Shown here one piece after another: positions 4,213 through 61,140 of a stretch of 64,000 nt of DNA. The notes under the pieces are model-generated. The model saw nothing but the letters and a program-made list of their open reading frames with translations, was not told the origin of the DNA and made no database searches. The stretch's first letter is position 1; each line of letters starts with the position of its first letter. The translations under genes and the position numbers were made by a program. The stretch comes from Nitrospirota bacterium (lineage in GTDB: Bacteria; Nitrospirota; UBA9217), in assembly GCA_963796285.1 (NCBI GenBank), contig CAWCKW010000001.1, positions 32,001 to 96,000 of the forward strand. The letters run 5' to 3'.

Positions 4213-4380
4213 AAAGTACCCTGACAGGGAGAGCAGCGAAATTCCAGGGTGAACAACAAGAGCTGCCAATCATTGAATAAGTCCGGTTACCGGTGTCCGA
4301 GGGTCTTTGGGCAATGGGGTGTTCGATCCACTTGCTCCCTGCCTCAAGGTGTCCCTGAATAATGGTTTTGAAAGGGTGAC

Positions 4381-43912: not shown

Positions 43913-44114
43913 ACAAATTCTACCATCTGCGCTGACGCTTGATGAACGCTGCGGGCGTTTGCAGCTTATTGCATCTCAGTGCAGGTACAAAGGGTATAGG
44001 GAACCATAGCTCACGCACTCATAATCGCCGGGTGCATGCAGAGGACTCAGAGGGCAGTGTTGTCTCCTTTCGGCTGGTCGGTGTCTTTCGGGATGAATCA
44101 TTATTTCGTCCGAA

Positions 44115-44605
44115 TTATTTCCCCGCAAGTTTATGTTTTTGTCTTGATTGGTATATGATAATCGAGAGATATCCAACGACTCCAACATTCACGATCAAAA
44201 GAACGGCTTTTGGCCATGTTACCCCGCGGGCAATCTCGAATAGTTCGAGAGGAATGTAGATGCTGCCCATAAGAAGACCGAACCATTCGGCCCATTGCCG
44301 CTCATGCCAGAGGCCATATGCTTCGACGAAGCGAACCACAGCGTAGAGCAGGGCAGAGAGCGCCATGAGCCACAGTTGCCCGTTAGTCACGTGATCGGCC
44401 AGATCGAGAAATATCGGGGATAATGGCTGGCGGGATTCAAGTGGAAGTGCCGGACCAGCCGCTCGGCAGCCAAGTGAATGTCCTTATGAATGTACGCCAA
44501 CAACCCGCACCCGGTCAGCAAGACAAGCAGTCCTTTAGCCGCTTCAAAGACGGATACGACACGGAGACCCTCTTTTACCTGTCCACGTTTATTGCCCATT
44601 CCCAT
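44115..44605 (-). CDS. DUF2127 membrane protein (apparent frameshift near 44410)
   Basis: VFEAAKGLLVLL, HLNPASHYP, RFVEAYGLW...WAEW...IYIPLELFE. Confidence 0.8.
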
Positions 44606-44796
44606 CACACACACCGCCCGTTTTAAAACACAAGTCAAATAATAGTATCTTTGATCTCCTCATGAAGAGTGTAACGTCATTGCCGGATAGTGCAGATTTG
44701 GGAGAAATACAACCAGACATCCCGAAGACATAAATTTATCGGAGAGTCAGGTATGAATGCTTCATTAATCATCATCCCCTCCATCTTGTAATCATT

Positions 44797-46224
44797 TCAA
44801 AAATGCATTGCATTCTGTATGATCGCGATCATCGGCCCCGGATACACCCCGAGCCAGATGAGCAGGATGACGAGCGCTGCGAGGACCATGCTGCCGGAAG
44901 GCGAAAGCACGGCTATAGTCTTGTCTTCTTGCTCCGAGTGAGAGAACATTGCGACGATGATCCGGAGATAGTAAAAGAGCCCGATAACGCTGTTCCCAAT
45001 CATCACAATAACAACCAGCCAGAGGGCGGATCCCACGCCTGCCGCGATGACGTAAAATTTCCCCACGAATCCGGCTGTCAGGGGAATGCCTGCGAGCGAG
45101 AACAGCATGAAGGTAAAGACACCCGCAAGCCATGGTCTTCTCCAGGCAAGGCCCTGATAATCGTCCATGCGATCGGCATCGCGGTCTTGTTCAGAGATCA
45201 CGGTGACCACACCAAATGCGCCGAGGGTGGTGATGAAATACGCCGTCAGATAAAAGGCGGCTGCGGTCATTGCCAGGGGGCCGCTTGCCAGAACGGTCAC
45301 GAGCAGATATCCCAGATGAGAGATCGACGAGTACGCGAGGATGCGCTTCACGTTTGTCTGGAACAGGGCGAGGAGATTGCCGGCGAACATCGACGCGATG
45401 GCGATGATGGTGAATATCGCGAATAGCGGCGTGTGGGAATGGATATCGATCAGGGTGAAGTAACGAAGCACGAGTGCGAACACCGCGCCTTTGGACACCG
45501 TGGCTATGAAGGCCGTCACGGGAGCCGGCGCTCCTTCGTACACATCGGGCGTCCACATGTGGAAGGGAACCACGGCGAGCTTGAACCCAAGTCCGACGAG
45601 GATCATCACGATACCGGCAAGGAACATCAGACGATGAGCTCCCGGACCTGCTGCGAAAGCAGCGATACCGCTGAACGCCATGCTGCCGCTTTCGGCATAC
45701 ACCAGCGCCATGCCGAAGAGGATGAATGCAGATGAGACCGCGGCCAGGATGAGGTACTTGATGCCGGCCTCGACACCACGGTCGCTGTGCCGGAGATAGG
45801 CTGCGAGGGCATAGAGCGAGACGCTTAAGAGTTCAATGCCGAGGAAGAACGAGGCAAAGTGAGCTGCTGCAGCGAGCACGGAGCAGCCGAGCGTGGCGAT
45901 GATCAGCAGCAGATAGAATTCCTCTCTATGTCCTTGTTGCATCTCAAGATAGGAATAAGAAAGGCCGGCCACGGCAAAGCTTGCTGCCACGATAAGACCG
46001 ATATAAAAAAGGGCGGAGTGGTCGACCACGAGAAGAGGAGTGACCAAGCGCGGGAGCGTGCAGGAAACGAGGGGAAGGCTTGCTGCCGACAGGAAAAGTC
46101 CCGAGAGTGTCAGGATGACAGTGAGCTTGTGGCTGCGGTTAAATGCGATGGTCAGCATGACCACAACTGCGGTGGCTGCAAGGATGATGAAGGGTGAAAG
46201 AGTCTGCAGGTAAGCGATGCTCAT
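44797..46224 (-). CDS. nuoN: NADH-quinone oxidoreductase subunit N
   Basis: EAGIKYLIL, FKLAVVPFHMWTPDVYEGAP, KRILAYSSISH, AGIPLTAGFVGKF. Confidence 0.96.
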   Translation of the reverse strand: MSIAYLQTLSPFIILAATAVVVMLTIAFNRSHKLTVILTLSGLFLSAASLPLVSCTLPRLVTPLLVVDHSALFYIGLIVAASFAVAGLSYSYLEMQQGHREEFYLLLIIATLGCSVLAAAAHFASFFLGIELLSVSLYALAAYLRHSDRGVEAGIKYLILAAVSSAFILFGMALVYAESGSMAFSGIAAFAAGPGAHRLMFLAGIVMILVGLGFKLAVVPFHMWTPDVYEGAPAPVTAFIATVSKGAVFALVLRYFTLIDIHSHTPLFAIFTIIAIASMFAGNLLALFQTNVKRILAYSSISHLGYLLVTVLASGPLAMTAAAFYLTAYFITTLGAFGVVTVISEQDRDADRMDDYQGLAWRRPWLAGVFTFMLFSLAGIPLTAGFVGKFYVIAAGVGSALWLVVIVMIGNSVIGLFYYLRIIVAMFSHSEQEDKTIAVLSPSGSMVLAALVILLIWLGVYPGPMIAIIQNAMHF

Positions 46225-47862
46225 TTTCCGCCTCCCTGATTGGAGGCAGGAAACGTCAAAATATTCACCACAGAGTTCACAGAGGTTTTTGAATATCTAA
46301 TAGATTTTATCTCGGCGTTCTCTGTAGTTATTTTATGAAGATTCATTGCGTTGTTATGATCTGGAATCTGAATCTCTCCGTGTTCTCTGTGGTTAACGAA
46401 TTGAATGGCATTTAGGAGCGGTTCGACTGTTTTCAGAACAGGCCGCGGGTAAAGGCCAAGCCAGAGTATCACGAGGACCATTACCGCCATCGAGCCTGTT
46501 TCGCGTGAAGAAAGGTCAATAAGCTTCAGACCATCTTGCCTCTTGCCATGGAACACGCGCTGGACGATCCAGAGCGAGTAGATCGCGGCCAGAACAAGCC
46601 CGCTGGCGGCGAACATGGTGATCACGGGGTGGGTCCGGTATGAACCGATCAGCACCATGAACTCGGCAACGAAATTGCCGAAACCCGGCAGGCCGAGTGA
46701 GGCAAGGGCAAAGACAAGACCGAAGCCGCCGAGTCGCGGCGCCGCTGACCAGAACCCGCCCATGCCTCCCAGCTCGCGGGTATGGACGCGCTCCTGGATC
46801 ATCCCGACGATGATGAACAGCGCGCCCGTGCTGATGCCGTGGGCCACCATCTGCATGGTCGCGCCTGAGAGGGCGATCTGATTCCCGGCGAAGATGCCGA
46901 TGAGCACAAAGCCCATGTGGCTCACGCTGGTATACGCCACGAGACGCTTCAAATCGGTTTGGCCAAACGCGAGCAGAGCGCCGTAGATGATACCGATGAC
47001 GCCCAGCACCAGCATTATCGGTCCAATGGTCGCAACAGCATCGGGGAAGAGCGGCAGCACGAAGCGCAGAAGTCCATAGGCCCCGGTCTTGAGCAGGAGC
47101 CCGGCAAGGACAACGCTTCCTGCTGTCGGTGCCTCGGTGTGGGCATCAGGCAGCCAGGGATGGAACGGGACGACCGGCAGCTTTACAATGAAACGCAATG
47201 ACAAACCCGAGCATGATCCAGAACGCTGCCTGGGAAGACAAGGCGATATGGCGCAGCAGCGAGTAATCGAAGGTATAAACGCCCGTGTCCTGGCCATGTA
47301 TGAAATAGAGTGCAAGGATCGAAAGGAGCATCAGCAGGCCGCCTGCCTGGGTGAAGATGAAGAACTTGAGCGATGCATAGACGCGGTTCTCGTGCCCCCA
47401 GATGTTGATCAGGAAGTACATCGGGATGAGCATCAACTCCCAGAAGAAGTAGAACAGGAACAGGTCCACGGCCAGAAACACGCCGAGGATCCCCGCGAGG
47501 ATCCAGAGCAGGTTCATGTGGAAGAACCCAACGCGCTCTCGGATCTCGGTCCAGGAGCAGATGACGGAGATGATACCGAGAAACAGGGTAAGCGCCACGA
47601 GTACGAGGCTCAGGCCGTCCATTGCGAGGTGCAGGCTGATGCCGAGCTGAGGGATCCACGGTTTGTTTATTTCGGTCAGCCAGGCGCTTTGAGTGAGATC
47701 GAGTCGGATGGCGGCGCTCGACCAGAATGATAACAGCAGGACGGCGTCGAGTGCGAGCGCGGCGAGGGACAGCCACCGGGACAGGGTGTTGTTCCTGTTC
47801 CCGAAGAACCATGCCAGCAGTCCGCCGATCAGCGGTATGATGATGAGCCAGATTAGGATCAT
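46221..47862 (-). CDS. nuoM: NADH-quinone oxidoreductase subunit M (apparent frameshift near 47185; repeat-derived C-terminal tail)
   Basis: FFWELMLIPMYF, VKLPVVPFHPWLPDAHTEAP, KRLVAYTSVSHMG. Confidence 0.93.
46267..46393. repeat. Inverted ACCACAGAG-type repeat doublet inside the nuoM 3' end
   Basis: ACCACAGAGTTCACAGAG (46267-46284) opposes CTCCGTGTTCTCTGTGGT (46376-46393), 15/18; third copy at 46311-46328. Confidence 0.6.
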
Positions 47863-48254
47863 GTAGTAGCCCCTCCCTTGATGGGAGGGGTTGGGGAGGG
47901 TGATTTCTGAGAGCAGGTTCTTAGAATCATTTCCAAAACCCCTTCGATTTTTGTAAGTACTTCATGATTCCAGAATCTTAAAACAGAGAACCCTTGTGAC
48001 ATTAGCCAGATATCCCGATGTGAATCAACTGCTTCAGAATGCTGACCACCATCAACTTCAACGACTACAGCTTTTTCATAACATACAAAATCCACAATGT
48101 AGTTGCCGATTGGTTCTTGTCTCCTGAACTTCAATCCTTCAACTTGCTTAAAACGCAGGTGCTTCCATAAGAATCTTTCTGCGTCAGTAGCGTTTTTCCG
48201 TAGGTTTTTGGCCTTCTTGGTTAGATCAAGCGTCAAAATGCCTTCCCTCCCCAA
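47859..48254 (-). CDS. DUF559 (Vsr-like) endonuclease between nuoL and nuoM
   Basis: LRKNATDAERFLW, KFRRQEPIGNYIVDF, VEVDGGQH, VLRFWN; true start may be TTG 48236. Confidence 0.92.
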   Translation of the reverse strand: MGREGILTLDLTKKAKNLRKNATDAERFLWKHLRFKQVEGLKFRRQEPIGNYIVDFVCYEKAVVVEVDGGQHSEAVDSHRDIWLMSQGFSVLRFWNHEVLTKIEGVLEMILRTCSQKSPSPTPPIKGGATT

Positions 48255-48279
48255 CCCCTCCCACTAGGGGAGGGGCTAC
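47866..48279. mobile_element. Inverted-repeat-bounded DUF559 cassette 1
   Basis: 35-bp IRs at 47866-47900 and 48245-48279 match except in the hairpin loop; both start with GTAG on their own strand. Confidence 0.7.
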
Positions 48280-48283
48280 AGCT

Positions 48284-50175
48284 CTATTGAAGAAGCATCA
48301 CGATCCCCAAAAACACTACCGCGCCTACGACCATCGCCATCGCGTACCACCTGATGTTGCCGGTCTGGGTCTTACTCAGTGTTGTGCTCAGCACACGATT
48401 CAATGACGCGATGCCGGCATACCCGGAATCGATGAGATCATGCCTGCTGATGCGCGTGAGCCACATAAATGGCCGTATAAAAAGACGGTCATACATCGCG
48501 TCGAAGTCCCATCCAGCGAGCCAGAATTTTCTGATCGACTCGAACGTGCGTACACGGGCGATCCGATCAGCGTATTGAGGACCATCGGACAAAGAACAGG
48601 TAGGCGATGAAGATGCCTGAAAGGGAAACGATCGACGCGATGATCTGGAGCATGCCTTCACCGACGACGGGTTCAATGGCCTTTTCGCTGAACACCGTCC
48701 GCAGGAAGTTCGAGAACAGGGGCTGGTTCCCGAGCGTCTCCGGCAGCTCCACAAACCCTCCGATGATCGAGAGTACGGCAAGGATGATGAGCGGTGCGAG
48801 CATCTTTGCCCCCGGCTTATGGCTTACCGGTGTTTTTAATTCTCCAAAGAAGGTGAGGAAAACCATGCGGAAGGTGTAGATCGACGTAATGAACGCACCG
48901 AAGAGTCCGGCAGCCCACAAGGCCATGCTACCTGAACCGGATGACCAGGCTTTCCACAGGATCAGGTCCTTGCTGTAGAATCCCGCTGTCACGAGCGGAA
49001 GGGCGGACAAGGAAGCTGAACCGATCAGAAATGTCCAGAATACGGCCGGAAGTTTGTTCTTCAAACCTCCCATCTTGAACATGTCCTGCTCGTGGTGCTG
49101 GGCAAGGATCACTGCGCCAGCGCCGAGGAACAGGAGCGCCTTGAAGAACGCGTGTGTCATGAGGTGGAAGATGGCTGCGGACCAGGCGCCCACGCCAAGG
49201 GCCAGGAACATGTATCCGAGCTGGCTGATGGTGGAGTAGGCGAGGACGCGCTTGATGTCTTTTTGCGCCATCGCGCTGAGGCCCGCGACCAGAAGCGTGG
49301 CTGCTCCGAGGACAGCGATCACCGATTGCACAACAGGCGCGAGCTCGAACAGGACATGGGTCCGTGCAATAAGGTACACGCCGGCGGTGACCATGGTTGC
49401 TGCGTGGATCAGGGCACTGACAGGCGTGGGACCTGCCATGGCGTCGGGCAGCCATACCTGGAAGGGTAGCTGGGCTGATTTTCCGAGAGCCCCGCCAAGC
49501 AGAAGGGCGGCGGCAAGAACCGCGGTTTCAGAACCAACAGACCATTGTTTCGGGGCGAGGGTCATCAGCTCCTGAATATTCAGGGTGCCGAGGTTCGTGA
49601 ACAGGAGGAAAAGACCCAATGCCATGGCAGTGTCGCCGACGCGTGTCACGATGAAGGCCTTTCTCGCGGCACGGCCGTTTGTTGGGTCCGAATACCAGAA
49701 GCCGATCAGGAGATAGCTGCAAAGCCCGACACCTTCCCACCCGAGGTACAGGAGCAGCAGGTTGTCGGCGAGCACGAGGAGAAGCATCGAGCCCACGAAG
49801 AGGTTCATATACGCGAAGAAGCGGCTATAGCCCTCGTCTTCGATCATGTATTCCGTAGAATAAAGGTGGATAACCAATCCCACAATGGTGACGATCAGTA
49901 TCATGACCAGCGAAAGGGCATCGAGAGAGAAGGAGATCGGTTGCGAATATCCCTCGAACTCCATCCACGTCCAGAGCGTCTGGGTGATGGCGTGACCCTG
50001 CGGTGGATTGCCGATGAACTCGAATCGCCATGAGAACGGCAAGGAGCGCGGACATTCCCACCGAGCCTGCGCCTACGAAGGCGATAGTCGTCCTCGAAAG
50101 ACGGCGGCCTATCAGCGCCAGGACAAGGAATCCGGCAAAAGGCAGAGCGGGTATGAGGAAGAGAAATTCGTTCAT
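48284..50175 (-). CDS. nuoL: NADH-quinone oxidoreductase subunit L (apparent frameshifts near 50025 and 48585)
   Basis: GWEGVGLCSYLLIGFW, GKSAQLP, WLPDAMAGPTPVSALIHAATMV, THAFFKALLF. Confidence 0.93.
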
Positions 50176-50184
50176 AGTCAGGTT

Positions 50185-50271
50185 GTAGCCTCCCCCTTTA
50201 ATGGGGGAGGTTGGTGGGGGTAAGTTCCGACTTTTCACCCTCCCCTCAGTCCCCTCCCATCAAGGGAGGGG
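50185..50271. repeat. Gene-less REP doublet of the DUF559-flank family between nuoK and nuoL
   Basis: GTAG-CCTCCCCC-TTTAAT-GGGGGAGG-TTGGTGGGGG opposed to CCCTCCCCTCAGT-CCCCTCCC-ATCAA-GGGAGGGG. Confidence 0.75.
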
Positions 50272-50277
50272 ATGCTT

Positions 50278-50589
50278 CTACCCTTTCATCCTGCTTACAA
50301 CATCGGTGTCCAGAGTCTTAAAATTATGGTATAGCTGGAGCACGAGCGCGAGCCCTACGGAAACTTCTGCTGCAGCCATGGTCAGAATGAAAATGAACAT
50401 GACTTGTCCATCCACCTGTCCCCATCGCGCGCCGGCGACCACGAAGGCCAGGCCCACCGCGTTCAGCATGATCTCGACGCTCATGAGCATGAACACGATG
50501 TTCCTGCGCACGAGTACCCCGATGAGCCCGAGCACGAAGAGTATCGCAGCGAGGATGAGGCCGTGTTCCATGGGGATGTTTTGAATCAT
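50278..50589 (-). CDS. nuoK: NADH-quinone oxidoreductase subunit K
   Basis: [25 protein letters not shown]. Confidence 0.96.
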
Positions 50590-50598
50590 GATGCTCCT

Positions 50599-51093
50599 TT
50601 AATGCTTGTGCGGCCTGCCGAGATGGTAGGCGCCGACCAGTCCTGCCAGAAGCAGCATGGACGCCAGTTCCACACCCAGTACGTACGGACCAAGCAATGC
50701 AATGCCTACCTGTTTGGGTGTGATTTCAGTAATAGCAGAGATTCTCGCGTGTTCCATGGTGAACAGATAGATCAATTCCGATGCAAGGAACAGGCAGAGA
50801 ATCGCCGGTCCTTTCCATATTCCCGGAGTAAGCAGCAGCGCTTCCTCTTTCGCGTGCGCTCCGCCGAGGTTCAGCATCATGATCACGAAGATGAAGAGCA
50901 CCATGATGGCCCCGGCATAGATGATGACCTCGAGGGCGGCGACAAAAGGAGCGCCGAGGATAAAGAAAATCATCGCCACGGCCAGAAGCGAAACGATAAG
51001 GTACAGGAGCGCGTGCACCGTGTTCGTCCTGGTGATGACCAGGAGGGTCGACAGGACCGCAACGAGAGCTGCAATATAAAATAATATTGTCAT
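50599..51093 (-). CDS. nuoJ: NADH-quinone oxidoreductase subunit J
   Basis: HALLYL, IIYAGAIMVLFIFVIMMLNL, VELASMLLLAGLVGA. Confidence 0.95.
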   Translation of the reverse strand: MTILFYIAALVAVLSTLLVITRTNTVHALLYLIVSLLAVAMIFFILGAPFVAALEVIIYAGAIMVLFIFVIMMLNLGGAHAKEEALLLTPGIWKGPAILCLFLASELIYLFTMEHARISAITEITPKQVGIALLGPYVLGVELASMLLLAGLVGAYHLGRPHKH

Positions 51094-51140
51094 AGTGAAG
51101 TCATTCTTTACGACCTTCGCGCTTGGCGAGAAACGATTGC

Positions 51141-51656
51141 TCAGGGCATCAGGCTTTTCGTGTCCACAGGCATATCTTCATTCTCCGCCTCACCTTTGTC
51201 CTTCCCCTTGATGGCCAACCCTGCGACCCGGTAGAAGTTATAATCAGGATACTTACCCGGTCCGCTGATGAGCAGGTCTTCCTTTTCATACACAAGGTTC
51301 TGCCGCACGTACTCACCCATCTCGAAATCCGTCGTGAGCTGGATCGCGTAGGTCGGGCATGCCTCCTCGCAGTATCCGCAGAAGATACAGCGCGAGAAAT
51401 TGATCCTGAAGAATTCGGGGTACCGTCTTCCGTACGCATCCTCGGTGGCCTGAAGCGCGATACAGCCTACCGGGCATGCGACCGCGCAGAGGTTGCATGC
51501 CACGCATCGTTCCTCACCATCGGGGTCGCGGGAGAGGATGATCCGTCCGCGCCACCGGGGAGGGATGGTGGGCCTCTCCTCGGGGTATTGGATCGTCGCC
51601 CGCTTCCGGAACATGGTCATGAAGACCGTGTAGATCGATTTAAGAATACTGAACAT
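51141..51656 (-). CDS. nuoI: NADH-quinone oxidoreductase subunit I
   Basis: [12 protein letters not shown] and [12 protein letters not shown]. Confidence 0.97.
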
Positions 51657-51664
51657 AAATCCTT

Positions 51665-52122
51665 TTTGACAGGAGAACAGGATAAAATCTGATAATGCTA
51701 CTTCAATCGCCTGAGCTTGCGCTTGATTTCGACTTTATCTTCACCAAAGTTAATGAGAAGTCCGATAGGTTTCCCTGTCGCAACGAGATAATTCACTAAT
51801 TGAACTTCGTGTACCTTGACAAGCTGCTTTATGGCCTTCAGTTCGAGAATAACCGTATCGTTTACAATAAGGTCTGCAATAAAATCGCCGACGAGTTCGC
51901 CGTCATAATATACTTGTATGGTTTTTGAGTCTCGACCTTTAACGCTGCTTTTCGTAATTCAATAACCAAGCATTTCTCATAAACGCTTTCAAGAAATCCT
52001 GCACCCATTTTATTATAAACGCGATATGCACAGGCAATGATTTTTTCAGTCAGTTCTTTGTATTCCAATTGGCCTCCGACAGATTCTCGCTCTTATCCTG
52101 TCAATCCTGTTATCCTGTCAAA
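51665..52122. mobile_element. Inverted-repeat-bounded GxxExxY cassette between nuoH and nuoI
   Basis: TTTGACAGGAGAACAGGAT (51665-51683) vs ATCCTGTTATCCTGTCAAA (52104-52122), 18/19 inverted; extra ATCCTGTCA unit at 52095. Confidence 0.65.
51698..52068 (-). CDS. GxxExxY protein (PD-(D/E)xK nuclease family; apparent frameshift near 51920)
   Basis: GFLESVY; second frame [28 protein letters not shown]...HEVQLVNYL...GLLINFG, TAG at 51700-51698. Confidence 0.88.
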
Positions 52123-52126
52123 GAAC

Positions 52127-53083
52127 TTAACCAGTTTTAATTAGAATAATCCATCCCGTCACCACGAGATTCACCAGCGACAGCGGCAGCATCACCTTCC
52201 ACCCGAAGGACATCAATTGATCATACCTCGGCCGGGGGAGCGATGCCCGGAGCAGGATGAAGAAACAGATGAACACGAATGTCTTTAAGGAAAACCAGAT
52301 CACGGGCGGCAGCAGCGGTCCCAGCCATCCGCCAAAGAACAGCGTTACCGTGAGCGCCGAGATGAGCGTGATCGCCAGATACTCGCCGATAAAGAACATG
52401 CCGAACTTCATTCCCGAATATTCGGAATGGAACCCGGCGACAAGCTCGCTCTCGGCCTCGGGAAGGTCAAAGGGCAGGCGGTGCGTCTCCGCAATACCGG
52501 CGATGAAGAAAACGACGAACCCGATGAACTGCGGTAGGATGAACCATCCGCCTTGCTGCGCCTCAACGATCTCGCGCAGGTTGAAGGACCCCGCGAGCAT
52601 TACCACGCCCATGAGCGACAGGCCCATGAAGACCTCGTAGCTCAGCATCTGCGCGACCGAGCGCAGGCCGCCGAGGAGCGAATACTTGCTGTTCGATGCC
52701 CAGCCCGCCAGGGCCACGCTGTAAACGCCCATGGACGACATGGCGAGGAAGAACAGCAGCCCGATGTTCAGGTCAACGACCTCGATGCCCGGCGCAAAGG
52801 GGATGACGGTAAAGGACATGAGCACGACTACCATGATCACCGCCGGTGCGATAATGAACACGGCCTTGTCCGCAAAAGGCGGGACCCAGTCTTCCTTCGC
52901 GAATATCTTGATCGAGTCCGCCAGCACCTGCAAGAGGCCGAACGGCCCCACCCGGTTCGGGCCATACCGGTCCTGCCACAGCGCCAGGAGCCTGCGCTCG
53001 AGCCAGATCAGCATACTGCCGATGGTAAGCACCACGAAGAGGATGCTGAAGAGAATGATGAGATGTAATATCGTTTCAGTCAT
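52127..53083 (-). CDS. nuoH: NADH-quinone oxidoreductase subunit H
   Basis: [39 protein letters not shown]. Confidence 0.97.
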
Positions 53084-53095
53084 GGCTTATCTGAT

Positions 53096-55609
53096 CTATT
53101 CTGAGTGGATCAATTTTGCACGTTCAACGATAGCCGGTGATTGTGCGCTCAATTCTTCTGATCCGAAGATGTTATAAACAGGTATCTCCGCCTGTTTACC
53201 CTTCGTATGATTTAGAGCTTCCGTCGTGAGATTGAAATACACAGGCTGAACTGTTGTTCCCGCCCCAATCAGGCTTTCCCCTATATCACCGCCTTTGAGG
53301 GGCCCGCCCACGTCCTGCTGGAACTTGTTCAAGGCCTGGACGGAATTCCAGCCCGGCGACCAGTAGCGGGTGATCAGCGACGGGGGAGGCTGGTCCTGAT
53401 ATCCCTCCATGGAAAAAGCAAGGGGAGAATCAGCGTCATTCGGCGGCTTTGGTTCATGCAAGCGGATGTTGGCGATCATGGCTGTGCGCCCGCTGTAGCG
53501 GTGCGGCTGGCGAGGGATCTTCTGCCCTTGTATCCTCCAATCAGCGGATGGCGCACTACTCACGGCAGGTCCGAATACCGGCATTGCAGCTGACATATCT
53601 TTCGCGATGTCATCGAAAGATTGCCATGTTGTCGATTTTCCGATCGTGGCCAGTATATCACGGATCCACTTCCAGCTTTCCTGAATGTCATGGTTCGGTT
53701 TGAATACCTGATAGAACCGCTGTGCCCGGCCTTCATTGTTCATCAAAGTTCCCTGGGCTTCCGCAAAAGTAGCAGCGGGCAGGGCGACATCCGCTTTTGA
53801 TGATGTCGGATTGACCAGGGAGTCAAGCACGATGATGTTCTTTGCATGATCCAATACTTCATCGACGATCTTTGCATCAGCCCTGCGAAAAAGGTCATTT
53901 TCAAGGATGATCATCGTATCGGCCTGACCGTCCCGGATGGATTTGAATGCCTCATCCAGGTTCTTACCCTTCATGAGAGCGAGTCCCATGGTATTACATT
54001 CCAGGACCGTGTAACAGAGGCCGGCCTGCTTCCCAATCGAGCAAAGGGCCCATGCAATATTGGCGGCTGCCTCAATGATCGCCTGGCTCATGCATCCGGT
54101 GCCGCTCACGATAACTGGACGCTTTGCATTCTTGAGCGCCGCTGCTATTTCCTTTGCTAGCGCTCTGACATCGGGTGATTGGTCTGGAACCGCGGGAACA
54201 TGCTGATCCAATTCATTTGCCACCGCAATACCGAGCCCTGCGATGTCGGCGGCCGAAGCCTGGTAGGTTTTTGTTGCAACATCATCCAACTTCGACTTTG
54301 AACCGGACGCTATGTAGATCGGTGTTTCTGAATTCTGTCCCGCGTTCCTGACCGCATTATCGTCCCAGCCGGGTATCTTCATAGCTGCCGCTGTCTCGCG
54401 TTGCTTGTTCTGAGCTGACTGACGGATCGAGAGCGCGAGCATCGGGGCTGTGTTGGTCACATCTTCACCGAGAACAAAAACCGCATCCGCAGACTCGATC
54501 TCATGCAGGGAAGGCGTGCGCGCAGGACCTTTTTGAAGAATGTCTACGATAGACCCCATGAGCGTGTGTTCCTGGCCGGACAGGCCTGAGCAGAAGTTGT
54601 CAGGACCGACAAGGGTGCGAAGGGCAAAGTTCGATTCAAGCGACGCACGGGGCGATCCGATGCCGATCATGACTTTGTTTTGGGACAGCATCTTCTTGAT
54701 CCTGCTGATCGCTGCGGTCTTGTCCGCAGGTGCCTGGCCTTCCTGTGCAGTTGCTTTAAGCAGCGCTTTTCTGATTCTGCGCCCGCTGTTCACGAATTCA
54801 TATCCAAACCTGCCGCGGTCGCAGAGGAAATAACCGTTGATCTCATAATTGTAGCGGTTCAATATTCTGCGGAGGGTGCCGTACCGTTCACCGGGAATCG
54901 TGTTGCAGCCGATGCCGCAATGAACGCAGATCGACGGCGCGGTCTGAAGGTCCCATTTTCGAGTAAAGTGCTGTTTGAGCGTTTTATCCGTAAAAACCCC
55001 GGTGGGGCAGACTTCGACCAGGTTCCCGCTGAACACGTTTTCGAGCGCGCCCTCTTCATGCCTGCCGAAATAGACGTTATCATGGGACGCGAATACAGAA
55101 AAGTCGCGGCCACCCGCATAATTACGATAGAACCTGACACAGCGATAGCATTGGATGCACCGGTTCATTTCATGATTGATGAAAGGGCCGAGGTCCTGGT
55201 TCCGTTGAGTGCGTTTTTTGAACCGCGTCCGCCGGTAAGTATGGCCGGTCATGACCGTCATGTCCTGAAGGTGACATTCGCCGCCCTCGTCGCAGACCGG
55301 ACAATCATGGGGATGGTTCAACATGAGCCATTCGATCACGCTCGACCTGAAGGCCCGAGCATCGGCATCGTCAATAGATAATCGCATTCCCTCGGCAACC
55401 GGTGTCATGCAGGACATGGTGATCCTGCCGCGCGTATCCTTGTCATCCTTGAACAGTTTGACAGCGCATTGACGGCATGCGCCCACAGAGTGCAGGGCAG
55501 GGTGCCAGCAGAAGTAGGGGAGATCGAACCCCAGCGAGAGGCAGGCCTGGAGGAGGTTCTGGCCTTCTTTGACTTGATGGGGTTTATTGTCTATATAGAT
55601 CGTAAACAT
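53096..55609 (-). CDS. nuoG: NADH-quinone oxidoreductase subunit G (long form with N7-type motif)
   Basis: PYFCWHP, CRQC, HPHDCPVCDEGGECHLQD, CIQCYRC, CVHCGIGC. Confidence 0.96.
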   Translation of the reverse strand: MFTIYIDNKPHQVKEGQNLLQACLSLGFDLPYFCWHPALHSVGACRQCAVKLFKDDKDTRGRITMSCMTPVAEGMRLSIDDADARAFRSSVIEWLMLNHPHDCPVCDEGGECHLQDMTVMTGHTYRRTRFKKRTQRNQDLGPFINHEMNRCIQCYRCVRFYRNYAGGRDFSVFASHDNVYFGRHEEGALENVFSGNLVEVCPTGVFTDKTLKQHFTRKWDLQTAPSICVHCGIGCNTIPGERYGTLRRILNRYNYEINGYFLCDRGRFGYEFVNSGRRIRKALLKATAQEGQAPADKTAAISRIKKMLSQNKVMIGIGSPRASLESNFALRTLVGPDNFCSGLSGQEHTLMGSIVDILQKGPARTPSLHEIESADAVFVLGEDVTNTAPMLALSIRQSAQNKQRETAAAMKIPGWDDNAVRNAGQNSETPIYIASGSKSKLDDVATKTYQASAADIAGLGIAVANELDQHVPAVPDQSPDVRALAKEIAAALKNAKRPVIVSGTGCMSQAIIEAAANIAWALCSIGKQAGLCYTVLECNTMGLALMKGKNLDEAFKSIRDGQADTMIILENDLFRRADAKIVDEVLDHAKNIIVLDSLVNPTSSKADVALPAATFAEAQGTLMNNEGRAQRFYQVFKPNHDIQESWKWIRDILATIGKSTTWQSFDDIAKDMSAAMPVFGPAVSSAPSADWRIQGQKIPRQPHRYSGRTAMIANIRLHEPKPPNDADSPLAFSMEGYQDQPPPSLITRYWSPGWNSVQALNKFQQDVGGPLKGGDIGESLIGAGTTVQPVYFNLTTEALNHTKGKQAEIPVYNIFGSEELSAQSPAIVERAKLIHSE

Positions 55610-55631
55610 ATTTTCTCTGATTGCTGATCAT

Positions 55632-56903
55632 CTAGTGCCATGGGCATTTCTTATCCTGTATGTGTTTCGCAAAGTCTTCGCGGAAGTACTTGAGCGCGCT
55701 TTGGAGCGGCTCAACGGCGCCCGGCGCAAGAGCGCAGTAGGTATTGCCGGGACCGAGCAGCCTGCATTGCTGCGCCAGCAGATCGATGTCGCCTGGCTCT
55801 CCCCCTCCGGTCTCGATCGCATGGAGAATCTTCTCTATCCACGGGAGGCCTTCGCGGCAGGGCGTGCACCAGCCGCAGGATTCCCGTCTGAAAAAGACTT
55901 CAAGGTTGTGGACAAACCCGACAGGGCAGGTCTTGTCGTCGAGCACGATCATGGTGCCGGTGCCCATGCGGCTGCCGGCTTTCATGACCGAGTCGAAGTC
56001 CATCTTGATATCCAGATGTTCTGCAACCAGAAAGTCGGTTGAAGCACCTCCGGGGATCAAGCCGCGGAACTGATAGCCGTCCAGCATGCCGCCCGCGTGC
56101 TCCTCAAGCAGCTCCCGGATGGTCATGCCCATGGGCAGTTCCCATGCCCCGGGCTTCCTTACCCTGCCGCTGACACCGTACAACTTGGTCCCGCCGTCAG
56201 GGCTTGAGCTCAAACCCTTGAACCAATCAGGTCCGTTGTTCACGATATGAGGTATGTTCGCGATAGTTTCCGCATTGTTCACGATCGTGGGTCTGCCGAA
56301 GAGGCCGCAGACCTGGGGGAAGGGCGGCTTCGCTCTCGGCGTGGCACGTTTCCCTTCAAGGGCGTTCAAAAGCGCGGTCTCCTCGCCGCAGATATAGCGG
56401 CCCGCACTCGCATGGATGCGGAGGTCGAGATTGAAGCCAGAGCCGAGGATATTCGTGCCGAGATAGTTGTGCTCATAAGCTTCGGCAATGGCCGCTTCAA
56501 GCCGATGCGCCGCCAGTTTGTATGCCCAGCGGATGAAGATGAATGCCTGCTGCGCTTCAATGGCATAGGCGCTGGTGATCACACCCTCGATGATCTGGTG
56601 GGGGTCGCCTTCAAGCAACATCCGGTCCTTGAATGTTCCCGGCTCCATCTCGTCGGCATTCACGACCAGATATTTAGGGCGCGGCGCGTCTTTTCCCATG
56701 GGAACGAAGCTCCACTTTGCGCCCGTAGGAAAACCAGCTCCTCCGCGGCCGCGCAGGTTCGATGCCTTGACGATGTTCTGGACATCCTGCGGAGACATCG
56801 CAAGCGCTTTGCGCACAGACTGGTAGCCGCCGGTTTTCTCGTAGTCTTTCAGAGAAAGCGGCTCCTGGCCAGCGCGTATGTTTTTTGTGAGTGGTCGTTC
56901 CAT
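55632..56903 (-). CDS. nuoF: NADH-quinone oxidoreductase subunit F
   Basis: LRGRGGAGF, NADEMEPGTFKDR, YICGEETAL, ESCGWCTPCREG. Confidence 0.97.
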   Translation of the reverse strand: MERPLTKNIRAGQEPLSLKDYEKTGGYQSVRKALAMSPQDVQNIVKASNLRGRGGAGFPTGAKWSFVPMGKDAPRPKYLVVNADEMEPGTFKDRMLLEGDPHQIIEGVITSAYAIEAQQAFIFIRWAYKLAAHRLEAAIAEAYEHNYLGTNILGSGFNLDLRIHASAGRYICGEETALLNALEGKRATPRAKPPFPQVCGLFGRPTIVNNAETIANIPHIVNNGPDWFKGLSSSPDGGTKLYGVSGRVRKPGAWELPMGMTIRELLEEHAGGMLDGYQFRGLIPGGASTDFLVAEHLDIKMDFDSVMKAGSRMGTGTMIVLDDKTCPVGFVHNLEVFFRRESCGWCTPCREGLPWIEKILHAIETGGGEPGDIDLLAQQCRLLGPGNTYCALAPGAVEPLQSALKYFREDFAKHIQDKKCPWH

Positions 56904-56917
56904 GGTACTTTATTTGA

Positions 56918-57382
56918 CTATGGGTAATTCTCCAGGATCTTTTCCATCATCTCCGGGGTCACGGGCCCGTACAAGTCCTCACCAACCATCATGGCCGGGG
57001 CGCGGTCGCAGGCGCCGAGGCAGGAGATGGGGAGGAGTGTGAAACGCTCGTCCTCTGTCGTTTCTCCGAATCGAATGCCGTGGGTCGTCTTCAGAAGTTG
57101 CAACAGCGGATTGTAGCCCATGACCCAGCAACTGATGCTGTCACATATCAGGATCACGTGCCTGCCCACTGGCTTCCGAAAAATAAAACTGTAAAATGTC
57201 GCAACTGCATCCAACTCATCGGGCGTCATCTCGAGCATTCGCGCAACTTCCTTGAGGCTCTCATCCGATACCCAGCCTTGGTGGCGCTGTACGATGTTCA
57301 GCGCTTCAATTGAAGCTGACTGCTTCGTCACGCAGTGTGCCAGTTCAACGTTGATTTTCTGTATTTCGATTTCGCTCAGCAT
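56918..57382 (-). CDS. nuoE: NADH-quinone oxidoreductase subunit E
   Basis: VATFY, CDSISC, CLGACDRAP. Confidence 0.96.
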   Translation of the reverse strand: MLSEIEIQKINVELAHCVTKQSASIEALNIVQRHQGWVSDESLKEVARMLEMTPDELDAVATFYSFIFRKPVGRHVILICDSISCWVMGYNPLLQLLKTTHGIRFGETTEDERFTLLPISCLGACDRAPAMMVGEDLYGPVTPEMMEKILENYP

Positions 57383-57388
57383 TTCAAT

Positions 57389-57781
57389 TTACCTCCTCTC
57401 CCCGAGGGGAGAGGATAGAGGTGAGGGGGTGTGTTGTCTTTGTTCTATTGCTCTCAAAATTGCTTCGTATATTCCTTCTTTGTTTAGCAATATATCCCTA
57501 TTGTTGAATCTGATAATATGTATGCCCCGCGCTGACAGCGCCTTTTCTCTCTCTGCGTCATGCGTCGCGCCCTTATTTTCATAATGCTGGCCGCCGTCTG
57601 CTTCAATGGCAATTTGCAATTCAGGTGCATAGAAGTCCAGGATGTATTTGTCGATAGAAAACTGTCGTCTGAATTTAATACGAGCCAATCGTCGATCGCG
57701 TAAGAGCGACCAAAGATTTCTTTCCGCGTCAGTTTGATTTCTGCGAAGTTCTCTGCTTCTCGGTATATTGGGTCGTTTCAA
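57389..57781 (-). CDS. DUF559 (Vsr-like) endonuclease between nuoCD and nuoE
   Basis: LRRNQTDAERNLW, KFRRQFSIDKYILDFY, IEADGGQH, IIRFNN. Confidence 0.92.
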   Translation of the reverse strand: MKRPNIPRSRELRRNQTDAERNLWSLLRDRRLARIKFRRQFSIDKYILDFYAPELQIAIEADGGQHYENKGATHDAEREKALSARGIHIIRFNNRDILLNKEGIYEAILRAIEQRQHTPSPLSSPLGERR

Positions 57782-57821
57782 CTTCCCCCCTCACCCCAGC
57801 CCTCTCCCCACAGGGAGAGGG
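57394..57821. mobile_element. Inverted-repeat-bounded DUF559 cassette 2
   Basis: TCCTCTCCC-CGAG-GGGAGAGGA-TAGAGGTGAGGGG (57394-57428) opposes CCCCTCACCCCAG-CCCTCTCCC-CACA-GGGAGAGGG (57787-57821). Confidence 0.7.
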
Positions 57822-57831
57822 AGAATTCTAA

Positions 57832-59581
57832 TCATCTATCCAAATCCGCCAGAATAAAATCAATGCTCCCGATGATCGCCACAAGGTCGGCGATCATCAG
57901 CCCCTTGCTGATCTTCGGCACCATCTGCATATGGGCGAACGAAGGGGTCCTGATGCGGGTACGGTAGGACATGGTATTGCCGTCGCTGATGAGATAGTAT
58001 CCGTTGTTCCCCTTGGTCGCCTCGATGCCCATGAACGCCTCGCCGGCAGGTATCACCGGTCCCCAACTGACGCCGAGGAAGTGGTTGATGAGCGTCTCGA
58101 TGTCATGCATGGTGCGTTCCTTGCGGGGCGGCGTCGTGAGCGGATGGTCTGATTTGTATCCGCCTTCAGGCATGTTGTTCACGCACTGTTCGATAATGCG
58201 CAGGCTCTGTCGTATTTCCTCGACGCGCACGACCCCGCGGTCGTAGCAGTCGCCATGGGTTGCCGTGGGGATATCGAACTCGAAGTTCTCATAGCCGGAA
58301 TACGGCCGCTTCTTTCTAAAGTCCCAATCGAATCCGCAGGCGCGGAGACCGGGACCGGTCACTCCCCAGTCGATGGCCTCGTCCTTGGTATAGATGCCGA
58401 CACCCTTGGTGCGGGCCTTGAATATCCTGTTCCGCATCACGATCGTGTCGTATTCCTTGAGCCGGGGAGGCAGGTATTTGAGAAAGTCGCGCACGAGCCT
58501 GTCCCATCCCTTCGGCAGGTCCATGGCCACGCCGCCGATCCGGAACCACGCAGGATGCATGCGTCCGCCGCAGATCGCCTCGACGATATCGAAGATACGC
58601 TCGCGGTCCGTGAACATATAGAACACCGGCGACAGCGCGCCCACGTCCTGGGCAAAGGTGCCGTACCAGACAAGATGGCTCGCGATGCGGAAGAGCTCGG
58701 CCATCATCACGCGGATGGTCTTTGCCCGGTCAGGCACCTCGATGCCCGCGAGCTTTTCGACCGCAAGGCAGTAAGCCATATTGTTCATAACGCCGCCAAG
58801 GTAGTCGACGCGGTCGGTGTAGGGGATATAGGTGTGCCAGGACTGGCGTTCGGCCATCTTTTCAGCGCCGCGGTGGTGATAGCCGATGTCGAGCACGGCG
58901 TCGGCGATCTCCTCGCCATCGAGCTGTAGGACGATGCGTAACAGTCCATGGGTGCCGGGGTGCTGTGGCCCGAGGTTCAGGAACATGAAGTCCGAGTCTT
59001 CAGAAACGCGTTTCAATCCCCAATCTTCGGGTCTGAACTTGAGCGCGGCCTGCTCTTTTTCTTCTTTTTCATCAGACAGCTCGAACGGGCCCATCTCGGT
59101 GGCCCGCGCAGGGTGGTCCTTGCGAAGGGGATGGCCGTTCCAGGTCGGAGGCATCAGGATCCTTTTCAAGTGCGGGTGGCCGTCGAACGTTATCCCGAAG
59201 AGGTCCCAAACCTCGCGCTCGTACCAATTGGCTGACTGCCAGAGGTTGGTGATCGTGGGGAATGACGGCGGATTATTCCGTGAGCGGCACCTTGATGCGG
59301 ATGTCCTCATTCCGGTCAAAGGAAAGGAGATGATATACGACCGTGAATTCACTCGCCGGCTGGTCCTGGCGATGATTGCGAACGCGCTCATCGATGGCCG
59401 TAAGGTCGTAGAGCATCTTATAGGGACGGTCGACACCTGTCTTAAGATGTCTCAAAACATCGTTGACCTTGTCGTGTGACACCCAGAGTGTGGGGATCTC
59501 ATCGCGCGTGGTCTGTTCGGCGAGAATGGAGTCGCCGAAGGTTGTTTTGAGGTCAGTGATGATGGGGTTGTTTGAGGGCAT
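57832..59581 (-). CDS. nuoC: NADH-quinone oxidoreductase fused subunit C/D (apparent frameshift near 59278)
   Basis: [49 protein letters not shown]. Confidence 0.95.
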
Positions 59582-59590
59582 AGGGTGAAT

Positions 59591-59835
59591 GCAAATGTCA
59601 AATTACAAAGCTCAGAGTTTAAAGGAATGTCAAAACGTCAATGTTTAATTTGATTATTTTGAGTCTGTATTTAATATCCTTTTTCGTCATGCCGGACTTG
59701 ATCCGGCATCCAGCGGTTTTATGAAAAGACTGGATTCCTGCCGCCGCAGGAATGACGAGCTTGAGAGAAACAGCAATGAAAATGCAAACTATATTTTGTA
59801 GTTTGATTTGTACTTTAGATTTTGAAATCTGAGCT
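59591..59835. repeat. Opposed heptamer arrays with nested CGTC-type REP doublet between nuoB and nuoC
   Basis: TCAAA(T/G)-type heptamers on the left, TTTGA-type on the right; CGTCATGCCGGACTTGATCCGGCATCCAG (59685-59713) and CTGGATTCCTGCCGCCGCAGGAATGACG (59730-59757). Confidence 0.7.
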
Positions 59836-59842
59836 TATTCCG

Positions 59843-60457
59843 CTACACTTCATCGGGCGATCTCAGGACCGTGGCCTTTTGCCGCTCTTCCCGTTTCAGG
59901 TCCCGCATGCACGGTTTCTCCGGCCGCACGATGCCCTGCGGCCCGGCGATCCAGCTCAAGGGCCTGCGTTCTTTGCCGACCTGCTCACGCAGCATCAGCA
60001 GACCTTCCATAAAGGCCTCGGGCCGGGGAGGACAACCGGGCACGTACACGTCAACGGGCATGAACTTGTCCACGCCCTGGACCACGCTGTAGATGTCGTA
60101 CATGCCGCCGGAGTTGGCGCAGGAACCCATGGAGATGACCCATCGCGGCGCCATCATCTGTTCATAGAGCCGCTTGATGATCGGCGCCACCTTGATGAAC
60201 ACCGTACCGGCAACGATCATCATGTCCGCCTCTCGCGGCGTTCCGCGGATCACCTCCGCGCCGAAGCGCGCAATATCGTACTTGCTCGTCAGACTCGTGG
60301 CCATTTCAACATAGCAGCAGGAGAGGCCGAAGTTGAACGGCCAGATGGAGTTCTTCCTCCCCCAGGCGAGCATGTCCTGCATCGTCGTGAGGATCACGCT
60401 TTGGCGCATCGCGTCTTCCGCGGAACCGTGGTCAGGTCTGGTTAAAGAATAGTTCAT
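59843..60457 (-). CDS. nuoB: NADH-quinone oxidoreductase subunit B
   Basis: [34 protein letters not shown]. Confidence 0.97.
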
Positions 60458-60473
60458 GAAGCCTTTCGGAAAG

Positions 60474-60588
60474 TTCAAATGTCAAAATTCAAAGTTTAAA
60501 TCAATCCTTAACCAAAAAAATTCAAATTTCACGCTTGTTGTTTTTTTTATTTCGAACGTTGATCTTTGAACTTTGAAATTGATTTTGC
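60474..60588. repeat. Opposed heptamer arrays at the nuoA/nuoB junction
   Basis: TTCAAAT-GTCAAAA-TTCAAAG-TTTAAAT versus TTGATCT-TTGAACT-TTGAAAT. Confidence 0.65.
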
Positions 60589-60966
60589 AAATGTTCCCCA
60601 CTCCAGTGCGCCGATCCGCCAGAGATAGACGAGCGTGGCAGTCAGGACACCGATGAAGACCAGCATCTCCCCATAGCCCAACCATCCATTCTCCCTGATG
60701 GACACTGCCCAGGCAAAGATGAACACGGCCTCGAGATCGAAGATGACGAAGAACATGGCGATGAGGTAGAATTTGATGTCAAAGCGCACCCGTGCCGTGC
60801 CGGTGGACACGATCCCCGACTCATAGGGCTCATCGGTCTGTTTTTCCCGGTGCCGTTCGCCGAGGAGCGAGGAGAGGACGATGATGATCGATACGAGGAC
60901 GATGACTGCGAGGAAATACACGCCGAGCGGCCAGAGCGCGGTTGTGTCTGCTGTTGGTTGCGTCAT
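60547..60966 (-). CDS. nuoA: NADH-quinone oxidoreductase subunit A
   Basis: PYESG, KFYLIAMFFVIFDLE, YLWRIGALEW. Confidence 0.96.
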   Translation of the reverse strand: MTQPTADTTALWPLGVYFLAVIVLVSIIIVLSSLLGERHREKQTDEPYESGIVSTGTARVRFDIKFYLIAMFFVIFDLEAVFIFAWAVSIRENGWLGYGEMLVFIGVLTATLVYLWRIGALEWGTFAKSISKFKDQRSK

Positions 60967-60972
60967 GTGCAA

Positions 60973-61000
60973 AGAATAGCACAGAGGGGGATAAAGTCAA
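60973..61000 (-). promoter_or_regulatory. Putative sigma70 promoter of nuo operon (possibly leaderless)
   Basis: TTGACT-16 nt-TATTCT with TG extension, 6 nt before the nuoA ATG. Confidence 0.5.
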
Positions 61001-61103
61001 GCAGGAGATGACTGCAAACAGGTGACACTGCTCGACGCTGGAATATAGGATGCGCATGCGGGGCAAGTCATACGTGGTGCTTCATTTGTTATCAGCGGGG
61101 AAC

Positions 61104-61130
61104 AAAAAAAGCGGGGCATCTCTGCCCCGC
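61104..61130 (-). terminator. Intrinsic terminator after octaheme cytochrome
   Basis: Minus strand GCGGGGCA-GAGA-TGCCCCGC then T7. Confidence 0.85.
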
Positions 61131-61140
61131 CACAGTGTTT

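Follow-up and report, generated by a model that had tools for sequence, protein, structure and literature searches.

Nuclease genes inside inverted repeats, and their gene-less derivatives, at the gene junctions of a Nitrospirota Complex I operon

Several kinds of short elements are known to combine inverted repeats or small nuclease genes with life between other genes. In the REPIN/RAYT systems, a low-copy gene lies between inverted units of repetitive extragenic palindromes, many gene-less doublets of these units are scattered over intergenic DNA, and their abundance is tied to the gene (sections of PMC3116915 and PMC3337134). The MITEs (miniature inverted-repeat transposable elements) found in operons, such as Correia/NEMIS and ERIC, measure 70-150 bp, have terminal inverted repeats, occupy transcribed spacers and have no coding capacity (passages of PMC10969869). 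The intervening sequences (IVS) of 23S rRNA are units of ~0.43 kb that carry an open reading frame (ORF) between inverted repeats within a transcribed unit and that occur sporadically (part of PMC4990558). Finally, homing endonucleases, including I-Bth0305I, are encoded by small genes placed between conserved genes, with a variable presence and a decay cycle (parts of PMC3239194 and PMC3424549). Traits of all four systems are met in the nuo (Complex I) operon of a Nitrospirota bacterium (GenBank assembly GCA_963796285.1, contig CAWCKW010000001.1), within a stretch of 64,000 nucleotides hereafter called the window, whose numbering is used throughout. The inserts at the junctions of this operon are made of a nuclease gene with inverted-repeat units, together with gene-less derivatives of such units; they are mobile over evolutionary time and adapted to operon life.

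The operon (44797..60972) lies, as do its junction inserts described below, on the minus strand. It was called from the ORF listing and Pfam, with domain support from Pfam and NCBIfam, and comprises 13 genes, nuoA, nuoB, a fused nuoCD, nuoE, nuoF, nuoG, nuoH, nuoI, nuoJ, nuoK, nuoL, nuoM and nuoN. Its spacers measure 68 nt (A|B), 261 nt (B|C), 449 nt (D|E), 14 nt (E|F), 22 nt (F|G), 12 nt (G|H), 470 nt (H|I), 47 nt (I|J), 9 nt (J|K), 102 nt (K|L), 421 nt (L|M) and ~170 nt (M|N). Eight of the 12 junctions are expanded (47-470 nt) and all eight contain repeat elements, in keeping with the initial annotation, which had seen an insert at about that many junctions. At three of them the insert includes a gene of ~125 aa. 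Two of these genes, at D|E and L|M, belong to DUF559, and the third, at H|I, is a GxxExxY gene with a frameshift; the inserts at A|B, B|C, I|J, K|L and M|N are gene-less versions. The three junction genes are transcribed in the direction of the operon and have a GC content of 0.40-0.44, against 0.55-0.63 in the nuo genes. Pfam detects no transposase or integrase domain in the operon. The description of the cargo as co-oriented, richer in AT and free of such enzymes thus holds for strand, base composition and domain content.

The D|E and L|M inserts would form a first class of cassette, a unit of ~0.42 kb in which a gene for a Vsr-fold protein of the DUF559 family lies inside a ~35-nt terminal inverted repeat. 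This repeat combines a GC-rich CCCCTCCC-loop-GGGAGGGG hairpin with a 13-nt extension. In the D|E cassette (57383..57831), the left repeat (~57786-57820), made of the hairpin and a G-rich extension, precedes the DUF559a ORF (57389-57781), and the right repeat (~57395-57429) lies inside the 3' end of that ORF. The L|M cassette (47859..48283) is built likewise, with the left repeat at ~48245-48279, the DUF559b ORF at 47859-48254 and the right repeat at ~47866-47900. The inverted repeat pairs at 29/35 positions at D|E and is perfect at L|M (12+19 bp, 31/31 positions). The left end starts a few bases past the upstream stop codon and its G-rich extension directly precedes the DUF559 start. At the other end, the ORF runs through the right repeat, yielding a Pro/Ser/Gly-rich tail, and stops 6 nt ahead of the nuoE start (DUF559a) or in overlap with the nuoM start (DUF559b, ATGA). 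A GGAGG from the 3' arm of the right hairpin sits 9-10 nt upstream of the next start codon (nuoE ATG). This arrangement suggests a fit to the operon: the cassette is co-oriented with its host, the left end would supply a ribosome-binding site for the nuclease, and the right end, through which the nuclease ORF reads, would bring a GGAGG to within a few bases upstream of where the following nuo gene starts. Such an insert may be harmless to nuo expression.

Both proteins belong to Pfam PF04480 (DUF559, Vsr-like), with 114.5 bits for DUF559a and 139.4 bits for DUF559b at a cut-off of 20.6, and both miss the equivalog cut-off of NCBIfam PRK09767 (117 and 83 against 218 bits). They are 40% identical to each other, and DUF559b matches the uncharacterised PDB entry 3hrl (E 1.3e-29). 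Residues D55, E66, D68, Q71 and H72 are invariant in 5/5 sequences. These may include the counterparts of Vsr D51 and H69, an assignment that draws in part on a passage of PMC11879112.

The H|I insert (51657..52126) would represent a second class, a unit of ~0.45 kb in which a GxxExxY gene, of the PD-(D/E)xK fold, lies inside arrays of tandem units, each lineage having its own unit. In this type of cassette, inverted arrays of 2-3 tandem units of 8-10 nt surround the gene. At H|I, ACAGGAT units form the left array (~52095-52122) and pair with the right array (~51665-51683) at 18/19 positions; the GxxExxY/PDDEXK_3 gene (51697-52068) stands between them and is broken by a frameshift near 51900. 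This frameshift is probably real, since one metagenome contig spans the cassette without gaps. Metagenome joints that skip the gene (51693->52098) were discarded as evidence, because one of their sides spans only 25 nt and they might derive from repeat copies elsewhere. The protein is thus read in two pieces, of which the N-terminal one scores above cut-off with Pfam PF13366 (56.6 bits) and TIGR04256 (57.8 bits). In related genomes, the PD-(D/E)xK motif (D67, E77, K79) and the G..E..Y motif are invariant in 25/25 GxxExxY proteins. An AlphaFold model of GxxExxY reaches a predicted local distance difference test score (pLDDT) of 94.6, and a fold search gives weak and generic PD-(D/E)xK neighbours only, namely Cas4, lambda exonuclease and the Holliday-junction resolvase Hjc; a sequence search of the PDB returned no match. 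As judged from their conserved residues, DUF559 and GxxExxY look like families of active minimal nucleases under constraint.

The source genome (G000, 13 contigs) offers some means to assess the assembly of this region. Frameshifts split nuoCD (59269), GxxExxY (51900), nuoL at two places (50026; 48600-48780) and nuoM (47190). Metagenome evidence consisted of contigs from sequencing runs compared across the junctions. The extra base at 47190 is missing from contigs in 4/4 runs (15.1 of 33.9 depth in run X6), the base at 50026 is missing in one run, and that at 59269 is missing in contig C9. Because of these contigs without the extra bases, most of the five frameshifts are probably assembly errors. 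Within the G000 bin, two contigs repeat the nuoA-G region, C9 (1-7993) at 98.4% and C8 (100-8214) at ~91% identity. Both represent variation within the bin at the level of strains or species. A second, divergent nuo-like operon is found at G000 C13:119000-136400, with 74-85% DNA identity in patches. Contigs of an RNA run (X20) are only 90-95%-like and come from relatives, and were not used for expression.

The gene-less inserts can be related to the two classes of cassette to various degrees. The clearest is the K|L doublet (50176..50277), which consists of two hairpin ends of the DUF559 type in cassette order, 14 nt apart, without a gene. Contigs of 3 metagenome runs join nuoK and nuoL there by 13-15 other nucleotides (sides up to 62 nt). 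The M|N doublet (46225..46399) has units of the CACAGAG type, with an 18-bp inverted pair (15/18 paired, 91 nt apart), and in one metagenome contig 32 different nucleotides connect nuoM with nuoN (side 74). In this assembly, no stop codon closes the nuoM frame ahead of the doublet; the frame reads ~58 codons through it to 46221, overlapping the nuoN start. The B|C spacer (59582..59842) contains an outer gene-less inverted-repeat doublet and, nested in it at ~59647-59796, a repeat of the CGTCATTCC type. Further copies of the latter are found on C12, C13, C6, C3 and C10, with 14 such ends genome-wide, and the 98%-identical contig C9 holds unrelated DNA where the nested element stands. The A|B spacer (60479..60546) is AT-rich, with TTTGAA-type units whose inverted partners (TTCAAA/TTTGAA) lie in the last nuoA codons; a strict scan picked up inverted unit pairs of this junction on the variant contigs C8 and C9. 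The weakest item, identified from sequence only, is the I|J spacer (51094..51140), with a half array resembling CGCAAAG-type units. Metagenome joints at 57808->47856 and 57808->47863 proved to be cross-matches between repeats. A comparison of inverted-repeat enrichment in nuo spacers with that in all spacers, based on crude ORFs, was uninformative, as frameshifts and read-through ORFs swallow elements.

Short non-coding elements that share their ends with a coding relative, as expected for MITEs, are thus found twice, in the CGCAAAG family described below and in the K|L doublet as compared with the L|M cassette. A difference from the MITEs treated in the consulted parts of PMC10969869 is that here the full-length relatives carry a nuclease gene within the same ends. 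Doublets without a gene and single hairpins may be explained as products of internal deletion within a cassette. Related copies that likewise have no gene are scattered over the genome.

The occupancy of the junctions was followed in 16 orthologous operons from the same family, counting at each junction only the relatives with data there. A DUF559 gene is present at D|E in 1/13 relatives (L004) and at L|M in 3/12 (L004, L015 and, broken, L001). GxxExxY is found at H|I in 0/15 relatives and at F|G in 6/13, intact in five and truncated in L014, the F|G spacer of G000 having 22 nt only. The K|L hairpin doublet recurs in 2/11 relatives (L001, L009), the M|N doublet in 1/11 (L001), and a single hairpin stands at L|M in L005 and L009. 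The latter could be the footprint of a deletion between the two ends of a cassette, or the state before insertion. Broken copies are seen at H|I in the window, at D|E on C8 (one TAA) and, among the relatives, at L|M (L001) and F|G (L014), besides a remnant at J|K (L005). Gene-less tandem-unit elements are seen at nearly every junction in some genome, some of them nested or in tandem, and some junction elements keep the ATG-containing inner part of the repeat. Orthologous junctions therefore show every stage, intact, broken, gene-less, solo-hairpin and empty, and the inserts are not fixed across the lineage. Neither the relatives nor the metagenome contigs offer a filled and an empty site with the same flanks that could be cleanly compared, since spacers are replaced rather than simply empty, and no target-site duplication was established. 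As side observations, the B|C spacer of L004 (~2240-2620) holds a 104-aa hydrophobic ORF between inverted arrays of the CGCAGAG type, and at D|E of L003 (~3680-4740) there is an ORF of 345 aa that has a GGEEF motif and around which no repeats are obvious.

These distributions bear on the possibility that nothing moves at all, the inserts being ordinary spacers, terminators and vertically inherited small genes. The age of the L|M insert and the lack of identical copies would be in line with such a reading. It is highly improbable, given that presence or absence varies among close relatives, that copies are dispersed with different flanks, and that matched ends persist across phyla.

The same distributions raise the possibility of intronless homing by free-standing endonuclease genes. 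The nuclease would then cut an empty junction and repair would copy the cassette into it, the repeats serving expression or insulation rather than recognition. DUF559b is found at L|M in G000, L001, L004, L015, L017, L018 and L019, and the F|G copies of GxxExxY in 6/13 relatives are of the same lineage at the same junction. The co-existence of intact, broken and lost copies at a single site is what a homing cycle would give, and one member of the Vsr/DUF559 group, I-Bth0305I, is a proven homing endonuclease (passages of PMC3424549 and PMC3239194). The ranking by identity also hints at a mild incongruence, L015 being the nearest relative by NuoL/M (78-88%) and not by DUF559b (66%). However, site fidelity inside one genus also fits vertical descent, and GxxExxY clade-mates lie mostly in unrelated contexts. 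Homing further leaves unexplained the dispersed gene-less doublets, the phylum-wide hairpin ends and the link between gene presence and repeat abundance. As compared with the homing endonucleases in the consulted parts of these sources, the cassettes have terminal inverted repeats and gene-less derivatives and stand in no intron or intein context. We therefore consider homing an unlikely explanation of the whole, despite the likeness in fold family.

The pairing of gene and ends extends far beyond the operon. For DUF559, one genome per species was scanned and the best 80 loci of 574 relatives were kept. These best 80 loci come from Nitrospirota, Spirochaetes, Chloroflexi, several proteobacterial classes, Omnitrophota, Patescibacteria and others. 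Their flanks have a median inverted-repeat score of 30, as against 15 in shuffled flanks (shuffled maximum 21). In the 73 loci that could be evaluated, a hairpin is present on the left in 59, on the right in 50 and on both sides in 42. The hairpin loops are kept as complements, the commonest being TTGAT and ATCAA. With crude longest-ORF calls, both neighbouring long ORFs are on the DUF559 strand in 45/65 loci and both are opposite in 4/65, and the earliest possible downstream start is at most 30 nt away in 32/60. The three closest relatives among these best 80 of 574 (63-74% identity) likewise stand at nuoL|nuoM. As an observation apart, a Dehalococcoidia contig, L060 (2190-3324), has a DUF559 gene between nuoK and nuoL, in the Complex I operon of an unrelated phylum.

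Hairpin units, counted as the extension plus a hairpin arm, were then compared over 61 genomes of the family. Their median number is 19.5 in the 34 DUF559-positive genomes and 1 in the 27 negative ones (Mann-Whitney p 1.9e-7, rho 0.66; relatives are not independent and p overstates the association). DUF559 carriers have the higher mean count in 5/6 genera holding both states, the exception being a 74%-complete genome. Controls with reversed patterns gave 0-1 matches per genome for two repeat patterns and up to 13 per strand for the third. G000 itself has 27 hairpin-unit matches, with hairpin doublets at ~9 further loci. In L040, a full doublet forms the left end of the cassette, which recalls RAYT genes flanked by REP units.

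For GxxExxY, pairing takes the form of co-variation, as each lineage appears with its own unit. The gene is present in 21/25 genomes of the family, in 1-8 copies, and inverted unit arrays are found at 28/36 cassettes, with many different units. The identity of the proteins tracks the similarity of their repeats (Mantel r 0.61, p 2e-4, n=26, leaving out two duplicate loci and eight cassettes without arrays). The two ends of one element match on average at 0.92 over 22 nt, a value taken from the best stems and biased upward, and the ends of different elements at 0.35. Among 17 pairs of clade-mates, as defined by protein and repeat clades, 12 have no flank homology, and the unit of gene and ends has therefore relocated. 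Over the 25 genomes, the counts of two array types follow the copy number of GxxExxY (rho 0.74), and where the gene is absent (four genomes) only 1-14 arrays are counted, the median being 69. The association between repeats and nucleases thus holds genome-wide for both families, and nuclease and repeat co-vary in the case of GxxExxY.

In G000, a strict scan detects 76 tandem-unit inverted elements. About 27 of these have CGCAAAG units, and 2 of the latter contain an intact GxxExxY gene; the logic of full and empty copies put forward in the initial annotation is borne out by this family. When gene-less copies from sites with different flanks are compared, full-length identity ranges over 75-92%. 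An intact GxxExxY copy of G000 is located at C12:1321463-1321813. As for the sites of insertion, 41 of 70 compact elements lie between co-directional ORFs, 13 between convergent and 6 between divergent ones, and 10 inside crude ORFs, the background of ORF spacing being 63% co-directional, 18% convergent and 18% divergent. The idea of a junction-targeting system is thereby weakened, as the elements also occur elsewhere than at operon junctions.

Whether the nuclease itself is the agent of this dispersal can be questioned, as repeats might be moved in trans by some other enzyme, with DUF559, GxxExxY, four-helix and other genes as passengers kept for a benefit in repair or defence. Several unrelated types of cargo do lie behind tandem-unit ends, many unit families of G000 are without any gene-bearing copy there, and a repair role is conceivable for DUF559 as a Vsr-like protein (part of PMC3424549). 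On the other hand, no candidate enzyme was found beside the cassettes. The one full Y1 transposase of the IS200/RAYT type (G000 C13:80663-81028; a partial second copy ends C12) has a hairpin motif only at its own two ends, so that this transposase does not account for the repeats. A passenger role gives no reason to expect the DUF559-hairpin pairing seen in many phyla. Nor does it predict that arrays accompany GxxExxY where the four-helix gene is absent (64 arrays in G016, 37 in G021), the reverse state being seen in 0/25 genomes. Taken together, these points make a trans-acting enzyme rather improbable, if still worth serious consideration.

A role of the repeats in RNA has also to be weighed. 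The hairpins and stems might be processing or stability signals of the nuo mRNA, acted on by a Vsr-fold RNA junction factor comparable to the RAP-domain FASTK proteins, or cut by RNase III. The cassettes are indeed co-oriented within transcribed spacers, with start and stop codons inside the repeats. According to parts of the respective sources, RNase III cleaves IVS elements that carry an ORF inside inverted repeats (PMC4990558), and Correia elements as well (PMC10969869), the Vsr-like FASTKD4/5 act at non-canonical junctions of mitochondrial mRNAs (PMC11879112), and DUF559 has been described as RAP-like (PMC11079077). If selection acted on a sense-RNA stem, G:U should exceed A:C among stem mismatches of the sense strand. 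The counts are 33 and 30 in 67 stems of nuo junctions (p 0.80) and 43 and 40 in 32 DUF559 loci (p 0.83), and without a G:U excess there is no sign of such selection. This result does not separate a role at the DNA level from neutral inheritance of the ends. A count of T:G mismatches in the hairpins (79 vs 69) was set aside, because the regular expression and the pairing register make it uninformative. An Rfam scan of 44000-61500, with E values up to 0.1, matched no family. A role in RNA alone does not explain dispersal, and it could coexist with mobility; as the explanation of the inserts it appears very unlikely. The cassettes also differ from the IVS of PMC4990558, as far as its consulted part goes, in that their host is the spacer of an mRNA operon and not an rRNA helix, in that the cargo in nuo is a nuclease, and in the lack of an RNA-level signature; an ORF of the S23p/four-helix family does occur in sister cassettes.

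The reading that we favour, with a confidence slightly above even, is that the junctions hold selfish cassettes of the REPIN/RAYT or MITE kind and their decay products, in which the part of the HUH enzyme would be taken by a nuclease of restriction fold. Gene and repeats would travel together as one unit. The nuclease would act on the DNA of its own repeat ends, presumably by cleavage, and thereby disperse or maintain the repeat population by some form of copying, as a RAYT does for REPINs but with the fold of a restriction endonuclease. Movement or maintenance of the repeats by the nuclease is in our opinion the most likely mechanism, and again one that we hold as somewhat more probable than its negation. 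Differences from REPIN/RAYT, as judged from the consulted sections of PMC3116915 and PMC3337134, are that the enzyme is of the Vsr or PD-(D/E)xK fold and is not the HUH Y1 enzyme that characterises RAYTs, that the genes lie inside operons and are co-oriented with them, that several lineages coexist per genome with their own repeat each, and that the order of the ends is not the same.

A number of observations weigh against the favoured reading. In G000, there are no gene-bearing cassettes that are close copies of each other, identity between gene-less copies with different flanks reaches 92% at best, and nothing shows recent movement. The L|M insert is old, as the identity of DUF559b to its L|M orthologues (63-74%) is near that of NuoL/M; being syntenic within the genus, DUF559b at L|M fits long vertical residence. 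In genera g3, g4 and g17, the three gene families are all absent and hardly any of the repeats occur: G010, G011, G024 and G043 (86-91% complete), which look uninfested, have 0-1 hairpin units and 1-14 arrays, with no match to DUF559, GxxExxY or the four-helix bundle. For this reason, joint invasion or shared descent could partly explain the associations of gene and repeat at the genome level. In the majority of genomic hairpin doublets the extension faces outward, whereas the cassettes and K|L show the opposite order (G000 C1:107864, C3:83066, C12:1314344, 1361122, 1494926, 1646309, 1696064 and 1699475), and in each of these outward-facing doublets one hairpin has a conserved non-pairing position. 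The analyses of flanking ORFs rest on crude longest-ORF calls. Finally, all six four-helix-bundle (23S_rRNA_IVP) loci of G000 (C12:142759, C3:56459, C3:321686 and three degraded ones) are bounded by tandem-unit ends of this same type, the unit differing from locus to locus. This protein is not a nuclease, and the 104-aa hydrophobic ORF of L004 is also bounded by tandem-unit ends.

The last two points affect the initial annotation. Its proposal that each nuclease type has its own repeat family is supported by the statistical pairing (hairpin counts, Mantel test, arrays), but it does not hold as an exclusive rule, since tandem-unit ends box other ORFs as well. In the same way, pairing and relocation are consistent with the nuclease defining and spreading the element, while the non-nuclease cargo is not, and an action of the nuclease on the repeats can be proposed only by inference. 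A stronger form of the idea is that there exists a new class of mobile DNA in prokaryotes whose elements encode no enzyme other than DUF559 or GxxExxY, and in which a ~125-aa nuclease recognises its own structured ends and disperses the cassette, with REPIN-like derivatives, into transcribed spacers without known transposase or recombinase chemistry. We put this forward tentatively, as a possibility that falls short of an even chance.

No description of such cassettes was found in the literature searched on both protein families, supplements being outside that search, and the word 'endonuclease' is absent from a 2024 review of MITEs (PMC10969869). DUF559 and GxxExxY/PDDEXK_3 are widespread small proteins without an established role, and their tie to repeat ends gives them a testable function. 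The cassettes show selfish DNA living in an essential operon, co-oriented with it, with a ribosome-binding site of its own and one restored for the next gene. The proposed mechanism would extend the REPIN/RAYT idea, a low-copy enzyme gene with non-autonomous repeats, to a second and unrelated enzyme fold. The stronger form of the idea, if true, would assign a function to two very large families of 'unknown function' across many bacterial phyla.

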